A stretch of DNA of 64,000 bases from Saccostrea echinata (Eukaryota), in assembly GCF_033153115.1 (NCBI RefSeq), contig NW_026889777.1, positions 18,104,001 through 18,168,000 on the forward strand, in the 5' to 3' direction. This document shows positions 23,736 through 57,924 of the stretch, piece by piece. Made by a program: the position numbers and the translations under genes. The notes below the pieces were generated by a model. That model was not told the origin of the DNA. It was given only the letters and a program-made list of their open reading frames with translations, and made no database searches. Numbering within the stretch: the first letter of the stretch is position 1; each line of letters starts with the position of its first letter.

Positions 23736-24572
23736 ATGCAGTATCATCCAGGATTATTGAGACAAAGAGGACACGGACAGTTTGTCTATCATAGAGGTTT
23801 ATTACGTCAAAAAGGACACGGTGTTGTAGGTGGAATTATCTCTGGATTGGCTGGAGCCCTTACCCCTAATCCTACTGGATTTCCAATACTAAATCTTCTT
23901 CCAGACAGTTTGCTTCTACCCAAATTTAGGCGAATTCGCCAGCATTTAAGATCTCAAAGAGGAGGAAATTTTATAGACTTCCTGTCGGGAATGGTACCGA
24001 ACCTACCTATAGGGATGACTTTAAAAGAAGCTGTCCAATTAGGCTCAGGCCGGCGGCGACAAAGAGGTCGAGGATTTCTTAAAGATCTAGTCAAAATGGG
24101 TCGTAATCAAGCCTTGATTGCCGGAGCTAAAATAGGAGCGGATGTGATTAAAAAAAGGAAAAATATCAAAAATGCTCTTTTAACTCATGGACTCAATGCC
24201 GTTAAAAATACGGGCTTATTTGCTCTCAATAGAGGAGGAAGTCTAGCTTTTAAAAAGATGAATAAGAAAGGTCAAAAAGGTAAAGGGAGAAGAAAAACAA
24301 GAAGAAGAAGAAGAAGAGGGCAGAGAGGGAGAGGAGTTGTGAGAAATTTACTGAAAACGGGAGCCAAACATGCCTTGACTGCTGCCGCTAGAACGGGGTT
24401 AGACGTGTTAGAAAATAAGAGATCTTTAAAAGACGCTGTCAAAACTCACGGAGTACAAGCCCTGAAACAAAGATTGAATCTCGGTAAGAAAAGAAGAAGA
24501 AGAAAAAAAGCACCTGTGTTAGCCCGAGGAGGTCCTAAGAAGAGAAAAAGGGGTTTAGATATCTTTGATTGA
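23736..24572 (+). CDS. Basic virion precursor protein with repeated QxGxG/QxGG motifs and amphipathic helices
   Basis: TATA at about 23680. Seven QxG(x)G motifs, a duplicated ~55-aa helix module and Arg tracts. Lies between penton and MCP. Confidence 0.8.
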   Translation: MQYHPGLLRQRGHGQFVYHRGLLRQKGHGVVGGIISGLAGALTPNPTGFPILNLLPDSLLLPKFRRIRQHLRSQRGGNFIDFLSGMVPNLPIGMTLKEAVQLGSGRRRQRGRGFLKDLVKMGRNQALIAGAKIGADVIKKRKNIKNALLTHGLNAVKNTGLFALNRGGSLAFKKMNKKGQKGKGRRKTRRRRRRGQRGRGVVRNLLKTGAKHALTAAARTGLDVLENKRSLKDAVKTHGVQALKQRLNLGKKRRRRKKAPVLARGGPKKRKRGLDIFD

Positions 24573-24646
24573 GAGACACTATAAATAGGAAAGTCGAGTG
24601 AGATTGACCTTCATTTGTGAAAAATCCATCTTAGTAGACAGACATC

Positions 24647-26068
24647 ATGTTGCAACCAGATTCCTGTGCTTGTGGGATGAACAATTTACAATTGTTCCAA
24701 GTCCCCCCGACTAATATTGCTTTAGAAGACTCCAAATGGGAAGAATATTACCCCATTTCTAGTACTTTAAATTCGGATACGACTCCCATTGAATTTGAAA
24801 TTAAAGGACAAGGAGATCAATATCTGGATTTATCTCAAACGTATGTTCAAATGGTGTGTAAATTCACCAAAGACGATGGTACTGATCTGACTGGAGCTAA
24901 CACCACTTGCGCCCCGGTGAATAATATCTTTCATTCCTTGTTTACGGAAATCGATCTCAGTGTCAATGGAAAAATAGTGTCTCCGGGAACCGATACTTAT
25001 CCTTACAAAGCTTATCTGGAGAAATTACTTTCTTACAAACCCAGAACTTTAATGACCCAGATGAGAGCCTGTAGTCTGTGGGAAAAAGATACGGCAGGAC
25101 ACATGGACGAAGTGGGGGTAGCAGACCTTGGAGTGGCTCAAAATAAGACATTTGATGTAACCCCAGGTGCAAGTGGTGGTGCCGATACTGTGACCATTGA
25201 CGAACCCATCGTCCCAGAGTTACCGGCCAATTCTAGAAACGAAGGATTTAGAAAACGTCACCAGGCCATCAAAGATAGTAAGAAAATACCCTTGTTTGAT
25301 CGTTTACATCTGGATCTATTTCAACAAGACCGATTTCTACCCAATGGAGTAGACGTCCGTTTGAGATTTAATCGAGCTAGACCTCAGTTCTATATGATGA
25401 TCAAAGCACTAAGTACGGGAAAAGTGAAAATATTGAACATGGTCTTGTGGGTGAGAAAAGTCAAACCCACGGCCGTCATGATGAATGGCATTAATCAAAG
25501 TTTGAACACTCATAGAGCCAAATATCCTTTGAGAAGAGTGGAAGTGAAAACCTTTACCATACTGACAGGAACTCAATCTAAGATTACGGATCATCTGTTT
25601 CAAGGCCAGATGCCTAAACGTCTCATTTTAGGCTTTGTGGAAAATGCGGCTTTTAACGGAGATAAAACTAAAAATCCGTTTAATTTTCAAAACTTTGGAA
25701 TTAAGAAATTAGATGTCAGTATCAACGGAGAGACCATGAGTACTCGTTGTTTTGAGCCCAATTTCAATGAAGATTTATATCTGAGATCTTATCTGAGTCT
25801 ATATCAAGCCTTGGGAAAATTAGGAGAAGATTGGGCTCCGGACATCACCCTAGAAGAGTATAAAAACGGATACACTCTGTGGGGCTGGGATTTCACCAAA
25901 GATCAAGAAGCGCAATCGGACAAATTCCACATCATAGAAACCGGAAATCTGAGAATAGAAGTCCAATTTACGAACAATACGGTGAACACCTTAAATTGTG
26001 TGGTGTATGCAGAATTCGATAACCTGTTAGAAATTAACAAACAGAGAGAAGTGAGTATTGATTACTAA
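24647..26068 (+). CDS. Major capsid protein (double jelly-roll, PY)
   Basis: [89 protein letters not shown]. Confidence 0.95.
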
Positions 26069-26571
26069 TGGATACGGGACAGTTGAGAGAAGTCTTATCC
26101 AGAGAATTAAAGAGTTCTTTTGGTGGAGTGTACCCTTTGGATATATTACCGGATCAATTAAGACTTGGAGAAAAAGCCATCGTGGTGAATACGGATCCTC
26201 AAGATCAACCTGGAGAACACTGGGTGTGTCTGTACGTGAGCAGTCCAGTGGTGGAATATTTTGACTCTTATGGATTTCCTCCCTTACAGAAAGAAATTCA
26301 AGACTTTATCCAGCGTCATGCTCACCAATGGATTTATAATCCGTATCGATATCAAGATTGGAAGACCGATGTGTGTGGACAATATTGTGTGTATTATTTA
26401 CATCAAAGACACAAGTTGAGAAAGAAAGCAGACGAGTGGTTATTTCCCTTTGACCATAGTACAGCTTTACAAAGAGATCATTATGTAGCTCAATGGTTTA
26501 AAGACACTTATCATAAAAGACCTACGGGTCATGGACAAACTTGTCAATGTTTCTATCAAAATGTCATGTAA
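26068..26571 (+). CDS. Adenain-like cysteine maturation protease
   Basis: FGGVYP.D, VNTDP..PGEHWV (His), YFDSYG (Asp), Q..TDVCGQYC (Gln/Cys). Confidence 0.95.
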   Translation: MDTGQLREVLSRELKSSFGGVYPLDILPDQLRLGEKAIVVNTDPQDQPGEHWVCLYVSSPVVEYFDSYGFPPLQKEIQDFIQRHAHQWIYNPYRYQDWKTDVCGQYCVYYLHQRHKLRKKADEWLFPFDHSTALQRDHYVAQWFKDTYHKRPTGHGQTCQCFYQNVM

Positions 26572-26723
26572 TTAATTGTTGTTATCAATAAAAAGAATTG
26601 GAAAAAAAAAATCTGTGTTCTTGTTGTTTTTTTTAAAAAAGGGGGTTTTCCCCATGATACTAAATATAGAAAAAAAAGGTATATAAAAAAAAGAAAAAGA
26701 AAAAAGAAAAGCCTCATTTGATC

Positions 26724-27224
26724 ATGAGTCTCCAGGAGATACAGGGTGATTTATTAAACATTCCTGTAGAAGCTATAGTACATCAATGTAACTGTTTAAC
26801 AGTCAGAGCTCATGGATTGAGTCAAAGTATAGCAGATAAATATCCTCAAGCGAATTTGTATGCCACCCGCAGACCTTTAGGGTCTAGAAATTTAGCCTTA
26901 GAAGAGGACAGGGATAAGCCAGGAACCATTAGGGTGTTTTCCTCACAAACACCTGTGGTCATTTGTTTATTAGCTCAATGGGATTATGGCAGAGCAAGTC
27001 ACAGACCTAAAAGAATCTCCACTTATCAGGACACCCCACAAAATAGAGAGCAATGGTTTCAAGCCTGTTTACAAGAATTGGGAAATTTACCTTATAAAAC
27101 TCTTGCTTTTCCTTACAAGATTGGATGTGGCTTAGCTGGAGGAAATTGGACTCATTATAGACATTATATTGAACAATTTGTACACACTTATGACAAACAT
27201 GTGTACATTCTTCATAAACATTAA
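26724..27224 (+). CDS. Macrodomain (ADP-ribose binding/hydrolase, Poa1p/TARG1-like type)
   Basis: IQGDLL, IVHQCNC, AHGLSQSIADKYP, PGTI, LAFPYKIGCGLAGGNW. TATA at 26680. Confidence 0.88.
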   Translation: MSLQEIQGDLLNIPVEAIVHQCNCLTVRAHGLSQSIADKYPQANLYATRRPLGSRNLALEEDRDKPGTIRVFSSQTPVVICLLAQWDYGRASHRPKRISTYQDTPQNREQWFQACLQELGNLPYKTLAFPYKIGCGLAGGNWTHYRHYIEQFVHTYDKHVYILHKH

Positions 27225-28471
27225 CTGTGTATGTGTGTGTTTTTTATGTGATATAAAATAAATCTTTTTTTTTTTGAAAAAGTACCTTTTTATAGGAATG
27301 AAGTGCCATGCTTCAGCCTCCACAGCAGTCTGATGCACTCATAAGCAGATCCTTGTGAGTGGGTGGGTGGGGAGCCCAGTAGAAAACACTAGGAATTTTT
27401 TTTTTAAAATTCCATGAGATCATCCAGTTTGGCTCACAGTACAGTTTTTTTTTTCTTTTTCCCCCTGTAATATATTGTCAATATTTAAAAAAATGGAAAA
27501 AAATTAAAAAAAATCATCAGCACTTGGAGATACAAAAAAAAAAACCTTGCTATCTTTTAACCAACTATGGTATTATAATTTACATTATCAATTATCTTTG
27601 ACTTATCCATTTTTTTTTTTATCCATTTTTTATAAAATATATATATATATAAACATGTATAGTAAAAAACAGAATTAAAATTTGTATCTCATTGAAAAAC
27701 TTCAAAGTTTTGTTTGTTTCTATATGTTGGATGATTAACTGTGTGTGTTTTTTTCTCCAAAAAAAAGGAAGAGTACAGCCCAGGCTTCACTTCATAGAGA
27801 CTGGATTATAGATGGTTAGGAACCCTAAAAAACATATCTTCCAATGTTGAGGACTGTAGAAATAAAATCCATTTTTTTTGTTATGATGACAAAAATACTA
27901 CATGAAACAATGCATGTTTTTAAATGTAATGGAATAAAAAAAAAGAGTAATATATATATATATATATATCAAGACCTAACTTATACTGGAATCAATGAAA
28001 TTTCATTCATAAAAATATATTTTTTTAAAAAATACAGACTTTATTTACTATGGACCATAAATGATGACATGAATAGCAGGCCATACTTTAAGCACATGAC
28101 AAACCATTATCTCAAAATCATGCAGAACTAGGTTCATTAGCATAGCTGACATTAAAACATATAGGTGAGGGATAACATAATCACAACAATAAACAATGTG
28201 TTAAAAAACTTTAAACGACTTACAGCGTGGATTACACGCCTTGAACAGGGAATAAAAAAAACCTTGCCTCGAGAGTATCATGGCGGCATAAACACAGAAA
28301 ATTAAGTCGTACTTAAACACATTCCCTAATGATTTGAGAAAATCACTGTCTTTCATGTGTGTATTTTTTTTTTATTGGACATGGGGAGAAAGTCTATAGA
28401 TTTTTGTTGTTGTTGTTATAATATGAGTTGACAAGAAAAAAAAAAATTATTTTAAGTGATTATGAGTTTAA

Positions 28472-28525
<54 letters not shown>

Positions 28526-28600
28526 AGTGACCTCTGGTGTTATTATACGTTTCTTTTATAACCGTGTATTAAAAAGGTATCTTTTCGTAAAATTTGGGTT

Positions 28601-28616
28601 GGCCCTTAAAAGGGCC
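28601..28616 (-). terminator. Histone-mRNA-type 3' stem-loop (distal) with HDE-like GAAAAGA at 28586-28580
   Basis: Minus strand CAAC-GGCCCT TTTA AGGGCC-AACCCA matches GGYYYU-UYUH-ARRRCC exactly. Confidence 0.75.
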
Positions 28617-28657
28617 GTTGTTGATTTTTTTTCTTCAGGGTTTACTCCCTGGGACTT

Positions 28658-28673
28658 GGTCCTTAAAAGGACC
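28658..28673 (-). terminator. Histone-mRNA-type 3' stem-loop (proximal copy)
   Basis: Minus strand CAAC-GGTCCT TTTA AGGACC; compensatory base-pair change relative to the distal copy. Confidence 0.7.
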
Positions 28674-28806
28674 GTTGTTTTTTTTTTTTTTTCTTCAGGG
28701 TTTACTCCCTGGGACGTCGCCCTCGTCCACGGCCAGTCACTACTCCGTTGTCTGGTGTTCTTCCTCCCTCGATGGTCACGCCACGGCCTCGGCCCACCCT
28801 GGGTGT

Positions 28807-29415
28807 TCAGGGACGGGTAGGAGGGGTGGGAAGAACGGGCTCCGGGCTCCCGTAACGACAGAGGGGGCAGCCCTCTCCTCGGTCTATCAGGCGGACCGCA
28901 CAGAGGAAGCAGGCTGGCCTCTGGCGGCATCGACCGCACAGGAAGTTGGACAACTCCTGGTCACACAGGCAGAGGCAGCAATATCCTTCGGCCACAGAAG
29001 CCTGGATCCCCCACAAGGGGATGCAGCCCTGGAAGACCGCTCGGTCCTGGGGAGGTGACGAAACCCCGTCGAGGAGGCGGTGGACTGCTGCTCCGGCCGG
29101 AGACGAAGGGGGGGACTCCGGACTGTCCGGCAGGTCGAAGTTCCTGCCCTCCTCCTCCGGCCGCGGATGGTATACGGGGCGTGGCTCCCCTCTGCTCCCT
29201 GCTGGTGAAGGCCTGGATGGCGAGGGCCTGGAATAGGGGGTGGTTCTGGCTCTCCTGGCGATGTTGCTTGCGACGAAGGTCCTAAGATCTCCGACGCGGA
29301 TCCTGCCCATATTGAAAACGGCAAACTCCTCCCCGGTGTCTTGGTTCCGAACCACCATCTGCAATATGACCTCCACTCCTGGCTGAATAGCTATATTCTC
29401 AGTAAAGAGAGACAT
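28807..29415 (-). CDS. GC-rich Pro/Ser/Arg-rich protein with C-terminal C4C4 RING-like domain
   Basis: CCLC-x10-CGRC-x5-CFLC-x10-CPLCRY. Upstream TATAAATA (about 29492-29485) and TCATTCG Inr. Confidence 0.8.
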   Translation of the reverse strand: MSLFTENIAIQPGVEVILQMVVRNQDTGEEFAVFNMGRIRVGDLRTFVASNIARRARTTPYSRPSPSRPSPAGSRGEPRPVYHPRPEEEGRNFDLPDSPESPPSSPAGAAVHRLLDGVSSPPQDRAVFQGCIPLWGIQASVAEGYCCLCLCDQELSNFLCGRCRQRPACFLCAVRLIDRGEGCPLCRYGSPEPVLPTPPTRP

Positions 29416-29968
29416 GTCGAATTCCTTGTAGTGTCGCTGGAACAGCTCGCTAACGAATGACAGTTAACAGCTGATCAGCGTCGGTATTTATACACACAGC
29501 GCGAGCCGAAAAGAGAGCACCCTAAAAGCCCGGATGACGAAGAGCTCAGAAAATCATGGAAAAATCAAAATTGTGTTATTTGTGTTTTGTGAATACCTCT
29601 ATTGGAGTAAATAACATATTATGGGATCATATATACATTCAAACCTTCTAGTAAAAGAATGAAGGTAAGTTTCGAGAATGATTTCACAGTATTTTTCATA
29701 CATGACATTGTTCCCTTGTTTAGAACAGGCTCATTTATGCCGAAGCGAAGGGCTAACCTTGACTGACCTGAATACATAAAATAAGTCGTTTTAGACTTTT
29801 GAGAGTGTAACACAAAGAAAACTTATGGCAGGCAATAAGATTGAACTTAGGGAAGAGTGTCTATATAGTTTTCAGATCAAAAGAATCGTTACAAGTGTAA
29901 AAATAAACTTAGCGTCGGTTTCGGGATAAACACAAGGGAGGTCAAAGGTCAGCCATTTTCAGAAAATC

Positions 29969-30314
29969 AATGTATAAGACTTTGTATAGGGAATATAAGA
30001 ATCTTTTCAATCCCGACCTTTTCAGATAAAAATTTTGAGATGAATAGAATCAGATTGGTCTAAAAACAAATTGTATACACTTTATTTGCAGTGGGAAAGT
30101 TTAGATTTTTTTAAATAAGAACAAAACATCCCAGCGTCTAAATGTATAGACTTGTATAGGGAATATAAGAATCTTTTCAATCCCGACCTTTTCAGATAAA
30201 AATTTTGAGATGAATAGAATCAGATTGGTCTAAAAACAAATTGTATACACTTTATTTGCAGTGGGAAAGTTTAGATTTTTAAATAAACCAGGATTTTATA
30301 GACTCAGCGTCTAA
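29969..30314. repeat. Tandem ~170-bp duplication in Polinton intergenic DNA
   Basis: GAATATAAGAATCTTTTCAATCCCGACC... at 29991 and 30161. Each copy has an inverted CCAAT (GATTGG). Confidence 0.85.
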
Positions 30315-30370
30315 CGGATACATGATGACGTCATTACTAAACAATAACAAACAAAAAACTTAGTGTCTTT

Positions 30371-30880
30371 TCATTCTTTTATTTCTTTTTGGTTTAACAA
30401 TTGTTCCAAATGTTGATTTCTGCGTTGAAATCTCATTCGATCGGCTACTAGAGCCATCCATTCACTTTTCCGATCTTCGGGTGGTAAATAATGAATTTCA
30501 TTCAAGTCTGTATTAAAAGTCACACATTTCTTAGTCTCTCTGAAATTTCCACATATTTCATCCCGTATTGAATGCATATTTTCTCCATCGATTCTATTTC
30601 CTGGTAGAGTAAAATCACTTTCCTTGCTTGGGGATGGCATAAAAAAGTGTAAGGCTTTCCTAGATAGTGGGTCAGGCTTAACCCATACCATTTCTGGGGC
30701 AGAGTTTCTTTCATGCGTTGACATAGAAAATGCAGTGTAGCTAGTCTCCCCAAGTTGGGAGGATGTAACAGGGCCAGGCATTGTAACCATAAGTCTTGAA
30801 TGGTTTCTATGATGGTAGTGGCTCTCTGAAACACTTGTTCTGCCTGGGGAGGGAGAGGTTGTTCGTGTTGTTCTATCCAT
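30371..30880 (-). CDS. PPP1R15/GADD34-, ICP34.5-, DP71L-like PP1-recruiting eIF2alpha phosphatase adaptor
   Basis: C-terminal KKCVTF (RVxF-like)..EIHYL..DRKSEWMALVADRMRFQRRNQHLEQLL matches the R-x2-W-x5-DR-x-RF-x-RR signature. The start codon is uncertain. Confidence 0.85.
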   Translation of the reverse strand: MDRTTRTTSPSPGRTSVSESHYHHRNHSRLMVTMPGPVTSSQLGETSYTAFSMSTHERNSAPEMVWVKPDPLSRKALHFFMPSPSKESDFTLPGNRIDGENMHSIRDEICGNFRETKKCVTFNTDLNEIHYLPPEDRKSEWMALVADRMRFQRRNQHLEQLLNQKEIKE

Positions 30881-30933
30881 TGCATTAACAAATCATAGCC
30901 TTCTAAAATCAAAGAGTGGTATTGCTTCGACAT
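30520..30933 (-). CDS. Overlapping 137-aa ORF of unknown function (first ATG after the promoter)
   Basis: Follows TATAAATA at about 30979-30972. Open over 120 codons that overlap the PPP1R15-like frame. Confidence 0.5.
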   Translation of the reverse strand: MSKQYHSLILEGYDLLMQWIEQHEQPLPPQAEQVFQRATTIIETIQDLWLQCLALLHPPNLGRLATLHFLCQRMKETLPQKWYGLSLTHYLGKPYTFLCHPQARKVILLYQEIESMEKICIQYGMKYVEISERLRNV

Positions 30934-31108
30934 GACAATTGATTATGAACAGAAGACATGATATTTTATCTTATTTATACCCCTGTTATTTAAAATTTAT
31001 TTTTAGACTTTGGAAAAACCAATAGACTTAATTTTTTTTTTTAAATTTTTTTTTAAAAATCTATTTTTAGACTTTGGAAAAACCAATAGACTTAAATAGA
31101 ATAGGAAG

Positions 31109-31195
31109 GTGTGGGTTTTTCCCAGATCTCACATCTCACATCTCAGGAATTTCCAGATCTCAGAACGTGCTGAGCGCGTGTGGGTTTTTCCAGGA
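31109..31195 (-). repeat. Displaced inverted copy of the left sub-terminal block (about 11045-11145)
   Basis: CAGATCTCACATCTCACATCTCAGGAATTTCCAGATCTCAGAACGTGCTGAGCGCG is the reverse complement of about 11067-11122. Confidence 0.9.
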
Positions 31196-31283
31196 CCCCT
31201 TCCTTTTAAAAAAAAAAAGTATAAAAACCAGCGCAGAGAGTGTATGGGTCATCATTTTCAGTCAGAAGTCAGAGGTGTATACC

Positions 31284-56689: not shown

Positions 56690-57370
56690 AGACTTTCAAT
56701 TGCGAACTGAACTGACCATTGTTCGAGTAATCCATATAAACATAACTAGTCAGAGTTACTTTTTTTGTACATGTAGTTCATTTGTAATCCTAATTATCCA
56801 TTATCCGATTCCTTTGTTGTCCATACATCAATTTTAAACCTAACTTACCATTATCAGAATCTTTTAATGTAGTTCAATTGTAAACCGAACTAACCATTAC
56901 CCAATTCCTTTGTTGTAGTTCAATTGTAAACCCAACTAACCATTACCCAATTCCTTTGTTGTAGTTCAATTGTAAACCCAACTAACCATTACCCGTTTCA
57001 TTTGTTGTAGTTCAATTGTAAACCCAACTAACCATTACCCAATTCCTTGTTGAAGTTCAATTGTAAACCCAACTAACCATTACCAAATTCCTCGTTGAAG
57101 TTCAATTGTAAGCCTAACTAACCATTACCCAATTCCTTGTTGAAGTTCAATTGTAAGCCTAACTAACCATTACCCAATTCCTTGTTGAAGTTCAATTTCA
57201 ATTGTAAACCGAAATAACCATTACTCATTTCTTTGTTGAAGTTCAATTGTAAAACTAACTAACCATTATCCAATTCCTTGTTGAAATTCATTTGTAAACC
57301 TTACTAACCATTACCCGATTCCTTTGTTTTAGTTCAACTGTAAGCCTAACGATTCCTTACTCGTTTCCTT
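56690..57370. repeat. 45-46-bp minisatellite
   Basis: GTTCAATTGTAAACCCAACTAACCATTACCCAATTCCTT(T)GTTG(T/A)A, more than 10 head-to-tail copies. Degenerate copies also at about 55270-55385. Confidence 0.9.
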
Positions 57371-57924
57371 TACATGATTTATTATACATTAATGACATTA
57401 ATTAAATAATAAATATTCAAGAGAATGATAAAGTACTTCTTTAATTTTCTTTTGGCTTGCTAAATCTTATTTTGTCCACAGCCACAGCACCTGGGCCTTT
57501 TTCTCCATCAAATCCAGCAAGGAAAAAATACTGTAGTAAAAAAAAAATATAATAAAGAAGTAAGCAAATAACTAAAATCACAGTATTAAGTGGGGGTAGA
57601 ATGGCACTGAATTTTATTTTCATTTTTTCTTTATACGCAGCACTGTTAAGGCGTACTATGAAGAAAACAACGGAAAATAGACGTGTACAAATAGATACCT
57701 TTTTAATACTGATTTATTTTTGTAAAGCTATTATACTACCAGATGACTTTAATATTTATTGAAATAACATTGTATACCCCACTCTATATTGAATCTAGTT
57801 TGGTCACCTTATTTGAAAGTCACGTGATAAATGCATATAATGTGCACTACATGGAGATCATACAAAAATTTCAATATCGCAAGGGCATATCGTAGTTCAA
57901 TTAAAAAAAATTAAGTTATAAATT

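Follow-up and report, generated by a model that had tools for sequence, protein, structure and literature searches.

Does the reading frame at positions 30371 to 30880 of this Saccostrea echinata DNA encode a phosphatase adaptor of the GADD34/DP71L kind inside a Polinton, as the original prediction held, and if so how would it be expressed, and would it serve the element that carries it? We addressed these points within the window, that is, the whole stretch of 64,000 nucleotides, and by comparison with relatives in the same genome and outside it. The frame (frame A), its core and its docking motif lie as follows.

30371..30880, minus strand: frame A, a 169-aa PPP1R15-like ORF, with a polar leader of ~115 aa followed by the core
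30395..30529, minus strand: PPP1R15 core, K118–L162, delimited by gap-free alignment to CReP and tallies over 59 copies
30515..30529, minus strand: RVxF-type PP1-docking motif KCVTF, within which the stop codon of ORF-B (below) falls

The C-terminal end of frame A contains KKCVTFNTDLNEIHYLPPEDRKSEWMALVADRMRFQRRNQHLEQLL, and the motif is present as predicted, except that the spacing between its Arg and Trp, given as R-x2-W, is in fact x3. The only Pfam match of the 169-aa ORF was PF10488 (PP1c_bdg; E 8e-4, 19.6 bits), so that the profile match proposed as a check was obtained but at a score below the curated cut-off of 26.1 bits, and the last 68 aa alone also remained below it (22.0 bits). The cut-off was passed by all three long-type relatives scanned (L003, 31.8 bits; L019, 28.9 bits; P0002, 27.4 bits). 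The best PDB sequence matches of the 169-aa protein were to CReP (E 0.0016 and 0.004), with residues 116–161 aligned to the human protein without gaps, including the CReP K640–I676 region. Used whole as a query in a homologue search, the protein gave no match; a profile built from seven family sequences matched CReP (E 3e-11) and DP71L (E 1.2e-9) in the PDB and, among 5.8 billion proteins, found 53 matches, four of which are named ASFV DP71L (E ~1e-5). From these comparisons we regard membership of the PPP1R15 family as near certain, and the proposal of a GADD34/DP71L-like gene in a Polinton is borne out.

The carrier is a complete 21.4-kb Polinton, whose ends and principal genes are listed here.

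10945..32346: complete Polinton/Maverick, 21,402 bp, with AGTAGT termini and inverted repeats
10939..10944: left 6-bp target-site duplication, a perfect match to the right copy
32347..32352: right 6-bp target-site duplication, identical to 10939..10944
11248..15291, plus strand: protein-primed DNA polymerase B (pPolB; PF03175, E 1.5e-57)
15413..15955, plus strand: IAP (BIR + RING; PF00653, PF13920)
16004..16645, plus strand: A32-like packaging ATPase (PF04665)
18932..20023, plus strand: retroviral-type integrase with chromodomain (PF00665, PF00385)
24647..26068, plus strand: double-jelly-roll major capsid protein (atlas score 0.98 to PF21738 clusters)
26068..26571, plus strand: probable protease gene, by its position right after the capsid gene; no Pfam match

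The inverted repeats are 84 nt long and 96% identical, and pPolB, the retroviral-type integrase, AGT-type ends and the 6-bp target-site duplication, hallmarks of Polintons, are all present. The capsid, packaging ATPase and probable protease genes are intact. The capsid gene had no Pfam match and no PDB sequence match, and the product of the gene that follows it is, we assume, an adenain-like protease. Comparison with a sister element shows purifying selection on both genes (dN/dS 0.17 for the capsid, 0.22 for the protease), and well over a hundred relatives of the element occur in the same genome. One of them (L078–L080, G000:C14:1168596-1193047) is a 24-kb relative with inverted repeats on both flanks, which contains pPolB, IAP and duplicated accessory genes and gave no capsid, ATPase or integrase match; it is likely a helper-dependent form retaining the two-frame cassette described below.

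Several further features of the window deserve mention. A 41-nt repeat unit (21563–21717; 30992–31128) occurs upstream of internal genes and also between the adaptor gene and a CCHC zinc-knuckle gene, where its units adjoin an internal copy of the terminal-repeat sequence (31117–31193); the repeat units and this internal copy are candidate promoter elements. The CCHC gene (31284–31979) holds a short stretch resembling the start of the macro-like gene at 26724–27224, and downstream of the adaptor gene, at 29982–30280, there is a perfect 129-nt direct repeat with 170-nt spacing. Outside the Polinton, 33262–41759 is a separate element with 555-nt inverted arms and an internal foldback with 400-nt arms at 37789–38855, and 56772–57379 is a tandem array of 45–46-nt units.

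The leader of frame A shares its DNA with another gene.

30520..30933, minus strand: ORF-B, 137 aa, conserved, overlapping frame A by ~119 codons

Frame A starts 53 nt after the ATG of ORF-B, and over its first ~119 codons it is read in the −1 frame of that gene, which the original prediction had overlooked. Across 74 loci the motif was present at 69, namely in 10 stand-alone types and 59 copies of this Polinton's family, the latter in three subfamilies (30, 15 and 14 copies) about 77% identical. ORF-B had 150 scored matches in the genome and one outside homologue, P0001 (67%). It found no match in Pfam, in the atlas (best 0.82) or among viral folds, and the modelled product (pLDDT 50) is probably all-helical and of no known family. 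Over the 119 shared codons dN/dS was 0.18–0.23 for ORF-B and 1.5–3.0 for frame A. Judged from these ratios, the ORF-B protein is under purifying selection, and selection on the amino acids of the leader was rejected, because ORF-B is constrained over the very codons at which frame A reaches 1.5–3.0.

The openness of frame A is a different matter. In representatives of the three subfamilies there are 12, 18 and 16 sites at which a silent change in ORF-B would stop frame A, and at none of them does it do so; with the codon usage of the element as yardstick, the chance of the frame staying stop-free is 0.016, 0.0009 and 0.003, respectively, for three subfamilies that are related to each other. 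Of 3084 windows of 119 codons taken from the other 17 genes of the element, not one has an open −1 frame. Among the copies, none of the 46 possible ORF-B-silent changes that would stop frame A was observed vs. 69 of the 572 that alter a frame-A residue only, with ~5 of 46 expected, and, as most copies of the L003-type subfamily came from the Pfam search and are biased toward intact ones, we note that without this subfamily 0 of 28 are seen and ~2 expected; all these tests for the avoidance of stops are post hoc. Of the 59 copies, 54 have an intact frame A, 51 an intact ORF-B and 50 both, and 123 of the 150 scored genome matches lie in open frames of at least 162 aa. By the overlap test both frames are open beyond chance across divergent lineages. 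Cumulatively, the pattern of substitutions indicates that the openness of frame A is selected, from a fixed ATG, in all three subfamilies.

Two side observations concern the same end of the element. Between this element and an L003-type element (L075–L077), dS is 0.91 for ORF-B vs. 0.19 for the capsid and 0.24 for the protease, which suggests that the accessory end has been exchanged between Polinton subfamilies. In the RING gene at 28556–29415 (minus strand) the −1 frame contains only three stops and stays open over one stretch of 106 codons, and the 3′ end of the gene is shared with a 124-aa ORF; this region possibly holds a second overlapping gene.

How ribosomes might reach frame A can be considered from the start codons and their surroundings.

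30878..30880, minus strand: frame-A start ATG (Met1), purine at −3, kept in 59/59 copies
30779..30781, minus strand: second in-frame ATG (Met34), kept in 59/59 copies; P0002-type relatives start here
30575..30577, minus strand: Met102, not conserved, CTG in 15/59 copies
30885..30896, minus strand: uORF of three codons, read in the third frame, with its end 4 nt ahead of Met1, 59/59 copies
30972..30979, minus strand: TATA box, candidate shared promoter, 46–48 nt upstream of the ORF-B ATG (six copies inspected, covering all three subfamilies)

A 68-aa protein had been proposed from the last in-frame Met before the motif. Translation from Met102 does give 68 aa, but this is not the conserved form, since one subfamily has CTG at this codon in all of its 14 copies (44 of the 45 others have ATG), and we rejected it as such because Met1 and Met34, both inside the ORF-B overlap, are kept throughout. 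Nor was selection on the three-codon uORF supported: it is present in every copy, but this does not go beyond what is usual here, 42 of 80 comparable degenerate codons being unchanged as well. Ahead of Met1 lie three AUGs, or four in this subfamily, two of them with a purine at −3, and the order after the ORF-B AUG is the three-codon uORF, a weak in-frame ORF-B AUG and then Met1.

Short leaders favour leaky scanning. One TATA-driven mRNA would serve both ORF-B and the adaptor, and the leader before the ORF-B AUG would measure ~15–20 nt from the predicted cap, so that some ribosomes would miss this AUG and initiate in frame A at Met1, yielding an adaptor of 165–175 aa, or at Met34, yielding one of ~135 aa. 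ORF-B would then be the main and the adaptor the minor product, and the leader of the latter an unconstrained, probably disordered by-product of the overlap. It is the short leader, together with the order of the AUGs, that leads us to favour a single mRNA with a minor adaptor product and leaky scanning as the route to frame A. With several AUGs ahead of Met1, however, leaky scanning would be inefficient, and the same adaptor function could be served by another route: transcription might also begin at a second site downstream of the ORF-B AUG, ribosomes might reinitiate at Met34 once they have read the three-codon uORF, the transcript might be spliced, or a −1 frameshift might fuse ORF-B to the core. 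P0002 and three cluster mates do begin at the equivalent of Met34, and two proteins of a second overlap family (P0013 and P0075) are in-frame fusions of an upstream ORF to the core. Yet Met1 is kept in every copy and frame A is open throughout from it, and the starts of P0060 and P0022 fall in roughly that register. Contigs of four runs contained no splice joint within the gene, but they may not be RNA and extend over intergenic DNA too, and so are no guide to expression, start sites or splicing. A conserved −1 slippery site was rejected, as a slippery run near the 5′ end is restricted to the L003-type subfamily. We therefore consider these other routes unlikely and retain leaky scanning as the favoured one.

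Beyond the overlap the constraint falls on the core itself, where dN/dS is 0.29–0.47 (42 codons outside the overlap), from which we conclude that it is under purifying selection. V120, R137, W141, D147, R150, F151 and R154 are invariant in all 59 copies, F122 is kept in 57 and R153 in 55. The roles of these residues are taken from the available sections of the literature on GADD34, CReP and DP71L (PMC10743859, PMC8500838, PMC5346070). KCVTF (K118-C-V120-T-F122) is separated from the Arg and Trp by the same distances as in CReP. Mapped through CReP, I129-H130 corresponds to the ϕϕ motif, R137 to R578/R658 and W141 to W582/W662, while D147, R150, F151, R153 and R154 correspond to D588, R591, F592, R594 and R595. 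The equivalent of GADD34 R587 is an Ala in the adaptor, and DP71L also has no Arg there. One residue of the present copy is exceptional.

30416..30418, minus strand: codon 155, Asn, private to this copy; aliphatic in the other 58/59

Residue 155 aligns to GADD34 I596 / CReP I676, a minor actin contact (PMC10743859), and the private Asn may weaken this copy; at position 30417 the window also disagrees with contigs of runs X1 and X4. The adaptor family keeps the equivalent of DP71L L57 and has none of L61 (both hydrophobic residues are retained in 59 of 70 outside database homologues). Moreover, its core, with a short C-terminal helix, ends before the GADD34 R612–R620 actin segment, which has no counterpart. 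We treat the C-terminal LxxxL and the distal actin segment as supporting features, not as the definition of the PPP1R15 family.

On these grounds we find it quite probable that the Polinton encodes, in the −1 frame of a conserved gene, a PPP1R15-family protein which would recruit PP1 and G-actin to dephosphorylate eIF2α. Because the eIF2α/actin helix is short, the protein might instead bind PP1 merely as a weak or dominant-negative decoy, or direct it to another substrate. The missing L61 equivalent and C-terminal actin segment and the Asn155 of this copy speak in that direction. According to PMC5346070, DP71L L61A left 57% of CHOP inhibition and deletion of LSAVL left 39%; LSAVL-less mutants still bound PP1 and lowered translation, both observations being in keeping with a decoy. 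However, W141, D147, R150, F151 and R154, which face eIF2α and actin, are invariant, and a mere PP1 decoy would not need them; P0002 has the same short tail, and other Polinton versions have the full helix. The decoy is thus, in our estimate, less likely still than the alternative routes of expression, and we continue with an adaptor directed at eIF2α.

Is the gene confined to this family of elements? A search of the genome with PF10488 gave 24 matches, of which 13 belong to this family, 10 are stand-alone ORFs and one is a host gene. The stand-alone adaptor ORFs are ~75 aa long, some of them broken, and in 4 of the 4 regions examined they adjoin integrase and capsid genes, in two arrangements, with 32–45% (integrase) and 24–31% (capsid) identity to this element. 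Judged by these neighbours, two further Polinton families of the genome carry stand-alone adaptors. Beside one stand-alone-type Polinton lies a leader fragment of the present family (L006:2870-3148), which suggests a nested insertion. A metagenome scan yielded one locus from 486 pattern matches, L098, a distant Polinton contig with a stand-alone version, whose core begins a single base beyond the stop of a jelly-roll capsid gene and had no Pfam match, and four scans of viral contigs gave no relative. At L098:558-1172 the frame of the PP1 core continues into an ORF downstream of it, and in P0015 the core is in frame with another domain, presumably macro-like.

For outside proteins (the P series) the Polinton context is one that we infer, because they are known as proteins without DNA. 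Their N-terminal parts were fitted to the −1 frame of ORF-B in a score-only test with 30–40 shuffles each. The fit was strongest for P0002 with P0001 (z 47); P0060 could be fitted to four ORF-Bs (z 3.7–6.7) at offsets of 17–21 (18 in the window element), and P0022 to one of four (z 6.1). P0016, P0010, P0011, P0014, P0017 and DP71L gave no fit to ORF-B (z ≤0.4 for DP71L, the control). By this measure the two-frame overlap probably also occurs in distant relatives outside this genome. For a second overlap family (P0004, P0008, P0042 and P0046) the −1 frame that fits is that of another upstream ORF (z 17–23), with P0044 and P0043 fitting it more weakly (z 10.8 and 5.0); no homology between ORF-B and this second ORF was found (HHalign probability 0.6%). 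In P0013 and P0075 the second ORF, which is helical, occurs fused to the core, joined in frame at the same place, where their relatives use different frames; either a short repeat has decayed there or the fusion is a natural one. In a tree of 70 cores (61 columns, leaving out the host row and 22 database rows missing the motif pattern) the deep forks were unresolved, and it gave no information on the origin or number of captures.

The host PPP1R15 gene (L001/L093) encodes about 613 aa and has a 210-nt intron inside the RVxF motif; this intron splits the motif, and the viral forms are therefore intronless. The genome also contains eIF2α and exons that we take to be those of PP1. Polintons do pick up cargo, and the present copy is substituted at a conserved site, so a captured host fragment carried passively and without function for the element has to be weighed. 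The core, however, is under purifying selection, its frame is open beyond chance, it is present in at least four divergent Polinton lineages, and it is intronless, unlike the host gene. Passive carriage is, consequently, very improbable.

What, then, would the adaptor do? KCVTF, I129-H130 and R137 would dock on PP1, and W141 and the D147–R154 helix would contact eIF2α and actin as in the solved GADD34/DP71L complexes, forming a PP1–actin holophosphatase on P-eIF2α. With eIF2α dephosphorylated, protein synthesis would continue during expression of the element's replication and capsid genes, and an eIF2α-phosphatase function, directed against the ISR (integrated stress response), is likely from the conserved residues. 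The original prediction went further and saw the behaviour of an infectious virus rather than a transposon. The intact, constrained capsid and protease genes and the IAP fit this view, but the adaptor gene itself is no proof of infectivity, since an element merely expressing its genes in a cell would also gain from a block of the ISR.

Host GADD34, CReP and fly PPP1R15 are induced via uORFs upon eIF2α phosphorylation, as stated in PMC10743859, and a stress-gated switch is therefore conceivable in the adaptor cassette. Were this so, P-eIF2α would cause the ORF-B AUG and the mini-uORF to be bypassed more often and the adaptor to be made, so that the GADD34 feedback loop would be rebuilt in a 560-nt two-frame cassette, with the antidote turned on at translational shut-down. 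That animal Polintons widely carry eIF2α-phosphatase adaptors, and that in this lineage the overlap acts as a stress sensor, is a minority reading, which we judge to be rather unlikely.

PPP1R15 mimics were already known from herpes-, asfar-, pox- and baculoviruses. New here are selected mimics in at least four Polinton lineages, a new carrier for an antagonist of translational defence, and the unusual two-frame layout in which the adaptor leader overlaps conserved ORF-B. The viral life of Polintons is still debated, and the adaptor would add such an antagonist to these elements. Adaptors under selection would imply that eIF2α kinases act against Polintons in invertebrate hosts. Oyster PERK reportedly takes part in antiviral immunity, according to one study. 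Annotation would overlook or misread a gene architecture such as the two-frame cassette, which may also tie synthesis of the adaptor to stress. If expressed, over a hundred intact-frame copies could affect the host stress response.

In its core genes, AGT-type termini and IAP accessory gene the element resembles known Polintons/Mavericks (adintoviruses), for which the core gene set and termini are described in the available text of PMC8097293, and IAP and other accessory genes in that of PMC8502044 (section 3.2); it differs from them in that a PP1 adaptor is not among the accessory genes described there. The accessible parts of PMC8097293, PMC8502044 (with one supplement), PMC11131425 and PMC11296320 contain no phosphatase or eIF2 gene in Polintons, and no report of a PP1/eIF2α adaptor in them was found in a literature search whose scope excluded most subscription journals and Repbase. 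A set of 391 proteins in animals and viruses (10.1101/2025.02.28.640897) may include unrecognised Polinton genes. Compared by description only, HSV ICP34.5, canarypox CNPV231 and the baculovirus PPP1R15A homologue (PMC13712846, PMC5704228, PMC8500838) are, like the adaptor, host-derived PP1–eIF2α adaptors in DNA viruses, but they are stand-alone genes of large DNA viruses, and the portions of these sources at hand mention neither Polintons nor an overlapping frame.

The closest parallel is with ASFV DP71L, an intronless viral mimic with the same core (RVxF followed by R-x3-W-x5-D-R-x-R-F-x-R-R) and with profile matches, which occurs (PMC5346070) in short (70–72 aa) and long (184 aa) forms, the latter, like the present protein, with an unrelated N-terminal extension. 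Unlike DP71L, the adaptor is carried by a Polinton, has a linker matching CReP in length, is without the L61 equivalent and has the −1 frame of ORF-B as its leader, to which the DP71L leader does not fit. With GADD34, CReP and the host PPP1R15 it shares the gap-free core alignment (to CReP) and the same predicted PP1, eIF2α and actin contacts, and it differs from the cellular proteins in having no ER anchor and no PEST repeats, in stopping before the GADD34 R612–R620 segment and, relative to the host gene, in being intronless. As a gene arrangement the cassette recalls paramyxovirus P/C, overprinted viral accessory genes read by leaky scanning, in that one frame is structured and constrained and the other drifting and polar. 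Unlike in that type, the overprinted part is here the mere leader of a captured cellular module, and the module itself sits just beyond the stop of the other gene.
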